From assembly GCF_003334785.1 (NCBI RefSeq), contig NZ_QOWV01000003.1: a stretch of 64,000 bases of DNA. One strand, written 5' to 3'. Of this stretch, positions 666 to 58,385 are shown piece by piece (within the stretch, counting starts at the first letter, position 1; each line of letters begins with the position of its first letter). The position numbers and the translations under genes are program-made. The DNA is from Escherichia coli. GTDB taxonomy: Bacteria; Pseudomonadota; Gammaproteobacteria; Enterobacterales; Enterobacteriaceae. Below the pieces are notes generated by a model. That model made no database searches. It saw only the letters and a list, made by a program, of their open reading frames with translations, and was not told the DNA's origin.

Positions 666-1091
666 GTGCAGTTAACGAGTTTCACTGATTACGGATTACG
701 TGCGCTGATCTACATGGCGTCATTGCCAGAAGGGCGGATGACCAGTATTTCTGAAGTGACTGACGTCTACGGCGTCTCCCGTAATCATATGGTCAAAATA
801 ATCAATCAACTTAGTCGTGCCGGCTACGTGACTGCTGTTCGTGGAAAAAATGGCGGCATTCGCCTGGGTAAACCGGCGAGTGCGATACGTATTGGTGATG
901 TGGTGCGCGAGCTGGAGCCCTTATCGCTGGTGAATTGCAGCAGTGAGTTTTGCCACATTACACCTGCCTGTAGGTTGAAACAGGCACTTTCTAAGGCCGT
1001 GCAAAGTTTTCTTACGGAACTGGATAACTACACGCTTGCCGATTTGGTTGAAGAGAATCAACCGCTTTATAAATTATTGCTGGTGGAGTGA
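666..1091 (+). CDS. nsrR: Rrf2-family nitric-oxide-sensing transcriptional repressor NsrR
   Basis: 141-aa ORF with GTG start; sequence recognised as NsrR (three C-terminal Cys in ...[12 protein letters not shown]...); position immediately upstream of rnr. Confidence 0.9.
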
Positions 1092-34154: not shown

Positions 34155-34817
34155 TTACTCACCCGCCAGCGCGCGTGGGAACAGTACATTGTTTTCCAGA
34201 CTGATGTGATCCATCAGGTCATCAATCAGTTCATTAATGCCGTTATACATCGCTTTCCAGGTGGTGCAGGCTTCTGGCGGCGGTGTGACGTTATTGGTAG
34301 TGTGTTTGATCACTTCCAGCAGTTCGCCCGCTTCATCGTGCTCGCTTTCCATTACGCTGATTGGCCCCATTGCCTGGCTGCCCATGCCTTGTTTGATCAT
34401 CGGGAAGAGGATCTGCTCTTCTTTCATCATGTGGCTGGAAAGCTCTTCATGCAGCATGGTCAGGTATTTTGTCAGCCCTTTTGGCACGCTCGGTTTGTCG
34501 GCGTGAACGCGCTCGACTTTAGTCGCTTGCAGGATCAGCTCCGGCAGTTGCTCGCGGTGACGATCGTGGTAGCGCACGATGATATGGTCGATGATTTCTG
34601 CCAGCGGGGCGCTACGCCAGTCTTTCTCAATCGGTTGTTCAGCAAGCTTTGCCAGCTCAGCTTCAATGACCTCAACATCCAGTTCTTTACGTGCCGCCGC
34701 ACGCGCCAGCGTTTGCTTACCGCCGCAGCAGTAATCCATATCATATTTACGAAACAGAGCCGAAGCGCGAGGGATAGAGAGCGCCAGTTCACCTAAAGGT
34801 TGGTCGCGATAAGCCAT
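34155..34817 (-). CDS. ytfE: iron-sulfur cluster repair di-iron protein (RIC)
   Basis: 220-aa ORF recognised as YtfE. Confidence 0.92.
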
Positions 34818-34838
34818 AGCTGATACCTCATTCTTAAT

Positions 34839-34866
34839 AAGATAAGGTGTATTTTAAATGCATCTT
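34839..34866. promoter_or_regulatory. NsrR operator-like inverted repeat in ytfE promoter (AAGATAAGGTGTATTTTAAATGCATCTT)
   Basis: AT-rich imperfect palindrome 22-50 bp upstream of ytfE start; ytfE is an established NsrR target. Confidence 0.55.
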
Positions 34867-34924
34867 TAAGGCAAATGCTATAACCCTTACGTAGCAGAGG
34901 CTTATTTAACTCACTGCCAGTATG

Positions 34925-35899
34925 TCAACTTTCTGAGACAGATTCAGTTAAAGGCTTTTCCGGTTTTGCTCTGACTGCAATGACCACGCCAACCACTAAC
35001 AGCGCGATACCGCTCAGCGTCATCAGCGGCGGCATTTGCTGGCGTATCAAAAAGGTGTACAGCAAACCTGCCAGTGTTTCGAAAACGATCAGCGGCCCGA
35101 GAATCACTGTCGGTAATCGCTGGCTGGCGACGTTCCAGCAGAGTGCGCCAACCCATGAGCAAAGCACGGCTATCGCAACCATCAGACTAATAAACACCAG
35201 CGGACGGGGGCCAAAAGGTAAGGAGAAGTCCGGCGTTTGTATATTCAGCCAGTAACAGGCGACGAGATAGCCGATGAGAGAAACCGGCAGCGTGACCAGC
35301 GCCTGCGCCGTCGCCCACATCATCGGATGTTTGTCGGGATTTTCCCGCAGCCAGCGGGCGTTGCGCAGGGCATACCATGCCCAGCAGACCACGGAAACTA
35401 ACGCTAGCACGATGCCAGAGGTATAACGTGCCCAGTCAAAATCGGGGAGTCCGTGGTTTAACTCAGCAATATTCACACACGCCAGGCCGATGCCAATACA
35501 AATCAGTGCCGGGGCGAGTTTTCCCCACGCGAGTTTGCCGTCGCGCTGGCTATAAAGCAGATTGGCAAAGACAGGAATGACCACCGGCAGGGTGCCAATA
35601 ATCATCGTAGAAACAGGCGCGCCAGTACGTTGAATGGCACTGGCAAGGCAGAAGTAATAGATGAGGTTGCCCATCATAGTGAGCATCAAGGCGGTAAGCC
35701 AGTCGCGACGCGCCAACTGACGCAGACGCACGCGTCCCAGCCAGGCAATGGGTAGCGCAATTAACCCTAACGCCAGATAACGCCCCATCGACTGCAACAT
35801 CGCCGGGTATTCCGGCACGATCAACGGCCCGACAAAAATAAGCCCCCACATCAACCCTGCTAACAGGGCGTACAGCACGCCGCTAATCATTACTGGCAT
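34925..35899 (-). CDS. ytfF: DMT/EamA-family inner membrane transporter
   Basis: 324-aa hydrophobic ORF recognised as YtfF. Confidence 0.85.
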   Translation of the reverse strand: MPVMISGVLYALLAGLMWGLIFVGPLIVPEYPAMLQSMGRYLALGLIALPIAWLGRVRLRQLARRDWLTALMLTMMGNLIYYFCLASAIQRTGAPVSTMIIGTLPVVIPVFANLLYSQRDGKLAWGKLAPALICIGIGLACVNIAELNHGLPDFDWARYTSGIVLALVSVVCWAWYALRNARWLRENPDKHPMMWATAQALVTLPVSLIGYLVACYWLNIQTPDFSLPFGPRPLVFISLMVAIAVLCSWVGALCWNVASQRLPTVILGPLIVFETLAGLLYTFLIRQQMPPLMTLSGIALLVVGVVIAVRAKPEKPLTESVSES

Positions 35900-39394: not shown

Positions 39395-39583
39395 CAGGGA
39401 CATCCTTTTATCATCGGGAATACGAAAGAAAAGGGAGAATAAACGCCTTACTTATAGAACAGTGAAGAATGCCACAATTTTACGCTTTGAAAATGATGAC
39501 ACTATCACAGTTGGCGCATTCATTAACGATAGGGTATAAGTAAAACAATAAGTTAACACCGCTCACAGAGACGAGGTGGAGAA

Positions 39584-40324: not shown

Positions 40325-40871
40325 TTAATTTATGCAGCAGGTCCATCACTTGCTGCACCTCTTCCTGTGTGAGCGCCCCGTCTTTGGCCCATTGCACGCG
40401 ACCATCCTTATCCAGCACCACTACAGCGGAACTTTCTTCATCCAGCTGCCAGGCACCGCGCGCGACGCCATTGCTATCGACAATAAACTGCGACCAGGGA
40501 TAAAGCTTTTTATTACTCTCCAGACTGCTGCGCACAAACATCCCTGAACCCGGAATCGCGTCGTCGGTGTTAACAATGGTGGTGGTCTGGTAGCGATCGT
40601 GCGGTAACTTCGCTGATTTAATCGCTTCAATCAGCGTCGCGTTTTTCTCTTTTGCAGAGGTGCGACCAGCAATATGTTGCAGTACTCGCACTTTTCCCAC
40701 TAACTGTGCGCTGTTCCAGGTTTTGTAGCTAAACTGATCTTTATCAAGCACCAACTCGCCTCGATCGGTAATGCCAATCGGCGGCACTCGCTGACCGGTT
40801 TCGAACTGATGTGCGGAAGCCATCATCGGCAACAGCAGGCAGGTGAGTGCCAGAATCTTGCGTAGGGTCAT
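40314..40871 (-). CDS. ytfJ: periplasmic protein YtfJ
   Basis: 184/185-aa ORF with signal peptide recognised as YtfJ; 3' end overlaps cysQ 3' end by 11 bp. Confidence 0.88.
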
Positions 40872-42807: not shown

Positions 42808-42983
42808 ATCTTATCCGACCTTTCAGGCCAGATCCTCGGAAGGGGAAGTTGATTAATTTGTGTGAAATACAAATTGAAAGCCGATTCGAAGAAAGTGAAC
42901 CGGCATTTTCAGTGGCTAGTATAGCGTAAGGTACTGTAAAGTCGCCAGAGGGTTAAAATTCAGACTGCTGATAAATGCAATAC

Positions 42984-43084
42984 TGCCTGATGCGCTATGC
43001 CAATCAGGCCTACGCAGTCCTTGCAATATATTGAATTTGGACGATTTTGTAGGCCTGGTAAGGCGTTTACGCCGCATCTGGCAT
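42984..43084. repeat. REP-like elements between ytfL and msrA
   Basis: REP-like strings (CTGCCTGATGCGCTATGCCAATCAGGCCTAC; GTAGGCCTGGTAAGGCGTTTACGCCGCATCTGGCA). Confidence 0.65.
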
Positions 43085-52009: not shown

Positions 52010-52115
52010 CTATGCCTGATGCCGATTCGTAGGCCGGATAAGGCGCTCGCGCCGCATCCGGCGGTGGTGCGCTGAAGCCTGATGCGACGCTTACCGCGTC
52101 TTATCATGCCTACTG
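52010..52115. repeat. REP/BIME cluster between ytfQ and ytfR
   Basis: REP consensus strings (GTAGGCCGGATAAGGCGCTCGCGCCGCATCCGGCG; GCCTGATGCGACGCTTACCGCGTCTTATCATGCCTAC). Confidence 0.7.
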
Positions 52116-58249: not shown

Positions 58250-58385
58250 CTTAGCCTGATATAGTGTGCGTAGGCCGGATAAGGCGTTCACGCCGCATCC
58301 GGCATTTGAGCATAGTGCCTGATGCGACGCTTGATGCGTCTTATCAGGCCTACAGGTGCACCGCATCCGGCAAACCATACTCACA
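58250..58385. repeat. REP/BIME cluster between mpl and yjgA
   Basis: Several REP units (GTAGGCCGGATAAGGCGTTCACGCCGCATCCGGCA etc.). Confidence 0.75.

Follow-up and report, generated by a model that had tools for sequence, protein, structure and literature searches.

How is ytfE controlled in this stretch of Escherichia coli DNA, and which bases upstream of the gene carry the control? Against nitric oxide from the host, enterobacteria mount a nitrosative-stress response with YtfE, Hmp and Hcp at its core. In the 64,000-nt stretch analysed here (the window), the initial annotation had placed an NsrR operator immediately upstream of ytfE, at an AT-rich imperfect palindrome spanning 34839–34866, and had recorded that the repressor gene nsrR lies in the same window about 34 kb away. 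Our analysis makes it very probable that the ytfE promoter has its NsrR operator at 34844–34866 and that NsrR encoded at 666–1091 acts on it in trans. The genes and the translation signal concerned are as follows.

34155–34817, minus strand: ytfE, the regulated gene, encoding the RIC/YtfE di-iron protein of 220 aa (open reading frame, RefSeq annotation)
666–1091, plus strand: nsrR, the regulator gene, encoding an Rrf2-family NO-sensing repressor of 141 aa from a GTG start (open reading frame)
34826–34829, minus strand: GAGG, the Shine–Dalgarno sequence of ytfE (read from the sequence; invariant in 81 loci)
34925–35899, minus strand: ytfF, upstream of ytfE on the same strand

Both genes proved to be what they had been taken for. 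The ytfE product is 100% identical to K-12 YtfE and scored 416.7 bits against the NCBIfam equivalog model NF008221 (cutoff 254). The GTG-started reading frame at 666–1091 encodes a protein that is 100% identical to K-12 NsrR and scored 292.8 bits against NF008240 (equivalog, cutoff 182); it fell under the cutoffs of both the IscR and the RirA equivalog models. Its only cysteines, at 91, 96 and 102, are the three conserved cluster ligands of E. coli NsrR. Regulator and target are separated by ~34.1 kb, as annotated, against ~25.8 kb in K-12, because the window carries a 9.4-kb island. A 1.85-kb query around the operator matched 5,417 of 5,426 complete E. coli genomes, with annotated cycA-ytfE-ytfF gene order, and was 100% identical to strain JKHS016.

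The island itself (21087–30525) is absent from K-12, which has yjfZ and a ytfA pseudogene at this place. It encodes an intact TetR/AcrR regulator, an SDR reductase, a sugar-phosphate isomerase/epimerase, an enoyl-CoA hydratase, a CoA-transferase, an FAD-dependent oxidoreductase and a three-part TRAP transporter. Elsewhere in the window, ~1.2 kb of K-12 sequence with ytfI is missing at about 40325–40328, and the matching RefSeq genome has cysQ directly against ytfJ, with a slight overlap. Six Rfam matches exceeded the gathering score: an RpsF leader (19512–19596), the ES239 sRNA (39395–39517), STnc450 (42869–42926), ES036 (43006–43048) and two copies of naRNA4 (52032–52110 and 58273–58350).

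The frame of the annotated element needed correction. The 28-mer AAGATAAGGTGTATTTTAAATGCATCTT is indeed located at 34839–34866, 22–49 bp 5′ of the ytfE ATG, and is self-complementary at 7 of 14 positions about its own centre. The best dyad of the region lies at 34855 instead, and about it the 23-mer 34844–34866 is complementary at 9 of 11 arm positions. Because the longer frame pairs at only 7/14 and the shorter one at 9/11, 34839–34843 falls outside the palindrome; the element that had been annotated upstream of ytfE is real, and its 28-bp frame is 5 bp too long. In the sense of ytfE the operator reads AAGATGCATTT-A-AAATACACCTT, and on the plus strand AAGGTGTATTT-T-AAATGCATCTT. An inverted-repeat search with a 6-base seed returned no match at the operator; as no exact 6-mer is common to its two arms, this result does not mean that the repeat is absent. 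The parts of the element are:

34844–34866, dyad at 34855: NsrR operator, an 11-1-11 inverted repeat of 23 bp, 27–49 bp 5′ of the ytfE ATG
34856–34866, minus strand: promoter-distal half-site AAGATGCATTT, with 0 mismatches to the consensus AANATGCATTT
34844–34854, plus strand: promoter-proximal half-site AAGGTGTATTT, with 2 mismatches, carrying G at 34847 and T at the T/C polymorphic position 34850
34839–34843: AAGAT, directly repeating in tandem the outer 5 bp of the operator, outside the palindrome

The tandem reads AAGAT-AAGAT in K-12; one copy is missing in strain 774, and other genera have ATCTTATATTATT at the position of 34839–34843.

Two motif searches singled out this site. The segment 34844–34866 has the architecture of an E. 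coli-type NsrR operator, two AANATGCATTT motifs inverted about a 1-bp spacer, and lies in the promoter region of an NsrR-regulon gene, 27–49 bp before the start codon. When as many as 3 mismatches were allowed, the full consensus AAGATGCATTTNAAATGCATCTT matched once in 64 kb, at the operator, with 2 mismatches in 22 specified positions, and matched nowhere in 100 dinucleotide-preserving shuffles. We also built a palindromic position weight matrix (PWM) from published CFT073 sites of NsrR (PMC5320621, Table 4), 25 in number once the ytfE site had been excluded. On this matrix the operator scored 29.0 bits; the second-best match in the window reached 12.4 bits, and 200 shuffled 64-kb sequences gave a maximum of 13.5 ± 2.2 bits per sequence (highest, 19.6). 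All 25 training sites scored below the operator, their maximum being 26.3 bits. The sole significant site of the window thus falls inside the interval first annotated, and the scan placed no NsrR site elsewhere upstream of ytfE.

Scored as 11-bp half-sites, the distal arm ranked first among 127,980 window positions (15.2 bits) and the proximal arm second (13.3 bits). The half-site consensus AANATGCATTT alone is uninformative in the window, with 6 matches against 7.4 expected. The third-ranking half-site, AAAATACATTT at 629–639 on the minus strand, lies 27 bp 5′ of the nsrR GTG. The nsrR upstream regions of nine other genera do not conserve it, and a NsrR ChIP peak has not been reported at it; NsrR autoregulation through 629–639, neither conserved outside E. 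coli nor ChIP-supported, was rejected, and the half-site is probably a chance occurrence.

The primary mutagenesis and titration work on E. coli NsrR and ytfE is reportedly that of Bodenmiller and Spiro in 2006. That ytfE is an established NsrR-repressed gene, as had been annotated, agrees with the literature (PMC5320621, PMC1274295, PMC2884951). For the K-12 operator of ytfE, PMC5320621 cites Bodenmiller & Spiro 2006 and Partridge et al. 2009. The site was predicted by Rodionov et al., who relayed from Spiro that the inverted repeat takes part in NsrR repression of ytfE (PMC1274295), and ytfE mRNA rose 544-fold in a Salmonella nsrR mutant (PMC2884951). The orthologous site has been detected in vivo by ChIP-seq in CFT073 and by ChIP-chip in K-12 (PMC5320621). 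In CFT073 it is AAGATGCATTTAAAATGCATCTT at coordinate 5049128, ChIP-seq positive and the top-scoring predicted site of the genome (PMC5320621, Table 4); the peak showed 9.65-fold enrichment with its summit 50 bp 5′ of the start codon, half-site motifs were placed 33 and 45 bp from that codon, and ytfE was up 69.6-fold with a nitrate-derived NO source (PMC5320621).

We compared the window with these published sites. In the CFT073 record AAGATGCATTTAAAATGCATCTT spans 5049128–5049150, 27–49 bp from the ytfE ATG, which are the offsets of 34844–34866. Locus and offsets are thus shared; the CFT073 site is a perfect palindrome, and the two bases in which the window departs from it, 34847 and 34850, belong to the proximal half-site. 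The K-12 operator has the same 23-bp frame, the same 27–49 bp to the ATG, the same cycA-ytfE-ytfF flanks and 22 of 23 bases, but has A at 34847 (sense ...ACATCTT) where the window has G (...ACACCTT). The operators of hmp, hcp, ygbA and yeaR, all NO-stress genes, share the 11-1-11 architecture and the consensus but are more degenerate, scoring 20.4–26.3 bits against 29.0 here on the same matrix.

Other regulators could in principle own such an element. Dimeric winged-helix Fe–S regulators acting at promoter-overlapping inverted repeats are also found at the IscR type 1 and type 2, RirA and S. coelicolor NsrR operators, although these Rrf2-family operators differ in sequence specificity, and a review describes derepression of ytfE in fnr and fur mutants (PMC9268430). 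A site for FNR, Fur, NarL/P or IscR nevertheless seems extremely improbable to us: the best local matches had 3 of 10 (FNR), 8 of 19 (Fur), 4 of 14 (NarL/P) and 7 of 24 (IscR type 2) specified positions wrong, against 2 of 22 for NsrR, and the best FNR match falls inside the coding region. The same review finds no recognisable Fur or FNR sites at ytfE and regards the effect as probably indirect (PMC9268430). Sites of all four regulators 5′ of ytfE were rejected on motif fit.

Assignment to NsrR also agrees with the conservation of the element. Our comparative set, obtained from a scan of species-representative genomes, comprised 80 ytfE loci and covered more than 20 genera of enterobacteria. 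All 80 have a site of 24.4–30.6 bits whose proximal end lies 25–28 bp from the ATG. Mean identity was 94.5% in the operator columns against 55–77% further upstream; 18 of the 23 operator positions were at least 97% conserved, 15 of these being invariant, and appreciable variation was limited to positions 4, 7, 14, 17, 20 and 21. The operator is thus retained at the orthologous position throughout the set. A second conserved block lies 11–24 bp upstream of the operator, at 34877–34890 (GTAAGGGTTATAGC in the window, consensus AAAGGGGTATAGC in other genera); its distance to either of the −10 candidates listed below does not suit a −35 hexamer.

Where the promoter itself lies was approached by comparison. 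A sigma-70 and terminator consensus scan of 34700–35050 found neither, and a relaxed comparative promoter scan found two conserved −10 candidates and no convincing −35. Literature searches for a ytfE transcription start or for EMSA data gave nothing usable. Across 81 orthologous upstream regions, TAAAAT/TAATAT was the best conserved −10 candidate and TATCTT/TATATT the second.

34851–34856, minus strand: candidate −10 TAAAAT, at the operator centre (TAATAT in 24 other loci)
34839–34844, minus strand: candidate −10 TATCTT, overlapping the last base of the operator (TATATT in 67 of 81 loci)

A perfect TTGACA at 34923–34928 (minus strand) overlaps the ytfF stop codon and has no acceptable −10 at 15–19 bp spacing. 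The stretch between operator and Shine–Dalgarno sequence (34833–34843) holds several population variants, among them C>T at 34833, T>A at 34838 and, in some E. coli, G>T at 34841; the last of these changes TATCTT to the TATATT that is typical of other genera.

The position of these hexamers, one at the operator centre and one at its proximal edge, raises the alternative that what is conserved in this AT-rich sequence is no more than the core promoter of ytfE, −10 and spacer, with incidental dyad symmetry; AT-rich −10-like sequences do look like NsrR half-sites. We consider this very unlikely. Conservation is symmetric over all 23 bp, including the GATGCA/TGCATC cores outside both hexamers, the site reaches its 29 bits on a matrix made from other NsrR targets, and a published ChIP-seq peak covers the orthologous site. 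The two roles are moreover compatible, a promoter-overlapping operator being the expected design.

An operator so placed probably represses by promoter occlusion: because it covers both conserved −10 candidates, NsrR should keep RNA polymerase away from them. In the mechanism that we propose, dimeric [4Fe-4S] NsrR would bind both 11-bp half-sites and, once bound, would block RNA polymerase at the core promoter and keep ytfE off; NO would nitrosylate the NsrR cluster, NsrR would leave the DNA and ytfE would be transcribed. Reportedly, YtfE itself produces NO from nitrite, and a YtfE–NsrR feedback model has been put forward (PMC9052748). If YtfE does make NO from nitrite, the operator would close a positive feedback loop, that is, a nitrite/NO sensor. 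The assignment of the operator is based here on a sequence match that is unique in the window, on where this match lies and how well it is conserved, and on the intact regulator and target; in vivo occupancy (at the orthologous site), NsrR- and NO-dependent expression and the cluster chemistry are taken from the literature. We met no evidence that contradicts the assignment.

The only detail of this operator that is not textbook is its allele, with G at 34847. At this position the window has G (C in the sense of ytfE), and K-12 and CFT073 have A; at 34850, K-12 and the window have T and CFT073 has C. The three E. coli operator alleles end in ...TGCATCTT, ...TACATCTT and ...TACACCTT. We counted alleles by searching for exact 43-mers, a length at which a single central SNP leaves no 28-base seed word intact. 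Among the 5,426 complete genomes, the K-12 allele occurred in 4,240, the CFT073 allele in 1,037 and the window allele in 19; about 120 of 5,416 genomes matched none of the three counted alleles, and the outer parts of the 43-mer have a one-base variant in 805 genomes. A literature search for reports of ytfE operator polymorphism found none.

The alleles are scattered over the population. Although rare, G-34847 is carried by its 19 genomes on at least 6 distinct 3-kb haplotypes. The position is the sole difference in 3 kb between O157:H7 strains FRIK2455 and PV15-279, and the sole difference in 3,023 bp between the window and BL21; the window and strain 300709 differ at 34847 and 34850 only. 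T and C at 34850 are likewise both found on one 3-kb haplotype (BL21 and strain 300709). An otherwise identical 3-kb haplotype carries three operator alleles, with no mismatch (the perfect palindrome), one mismatch and two mismatches. Ten haplotypes compared over 34774–34875 differ at 34847 and 34850 only. The pattern suggests either recurrent mutation or recombination in very short patches.

Such recurrence invites the reading that G-34847 weakens NsrR binding, raises basal ytfE expression and recurs under selection that retunes the nitrite/NO loop. Besides the scatter described above, the base moves the half-site away from consensus, at a cost of 1.25 bits relative to the K-12 allele and of 2.06 bits relative to the CFT073 allele on the PWM. 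We regard this reading as unlikely. The cost relative to K-12 is small and the site still outscores all other published NsrR sites; the same base (C in the sense of ytfE) stands at the equivalent position in 8 of 80 other species; operator position 20 and its symmetric partner, position 4, are among the few variable ones; and spread by recombination patches of ~100–200 bp offers an alternative. The position equivalent to 34850 is likewise split among loci of other genera, 37 with A and 43 with G. Because 34847 also varies between genera, G is probably tolerated there, and at a tolerated position inside a constrained element recurrence is expected. On these comparisons the element is under strong constraint but probably tolerates change at 34847 and 34850, and the variant half-site of the window may well function near-normally. 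Selection for a retuned operator is possible but unsupported, and we think it rather improbable that the proximal half-site is a hotspot of regulatory micro-evolution at which G-34847 arose independently on at least 6 backgrounds.

The same SNP could instead act in the transcript, if the proximal arm formed the 5′ side of a hairpin in which the ytfE Shine–Dalgarno sequence is sequestered and the rare base strengthened this hairpin by turning a U–G into a C–G pair. The minimum-energy fold does pair 34848–34839 with 34835–34825, including GAGG (z-score −2.07), at −7.0 kcal/mol for the window allele against −5.0 kcal/mol for the K-12 allele. A consensus fold of 65 unique orthologous leaders, however, gave a 5-bp helix of −0.04 kcal/mol with no compensatory changes, and with TAAAAT as the −10, transcription would start downstream of the SNP, leaving it out of the transcript. 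An Rfam search returned no family at the operator/leader locus. The chance that such a hairpin operates appears slight, and the structure, neither conserved nor backed by covariation, was set aside.

Together, these results place NsrR at 34844–34866, and NsrR control of ytfE through this operator is already-known biology, as the initial annotation had itself said in calling it expected; the annotation is correct once trimmed to these coordinates. It is useful and unsurprising, joining in one window the regulator and its site, the strongest known for NsrR in E. coli genomes, and recent work treats YtfE–NsrR as a nitrite-sensing feedback pair (PMC9052748). At least three natural operator alleles, differing only at two soft positions (34847 and 34850), form a ready-made allelic series for relating operator strength to the induction threshold of the loop. 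If selection drives this allele diversity, strains would be tuning the set-point of the NsrR–YtfE nitrite/NO loop by single operator bases.
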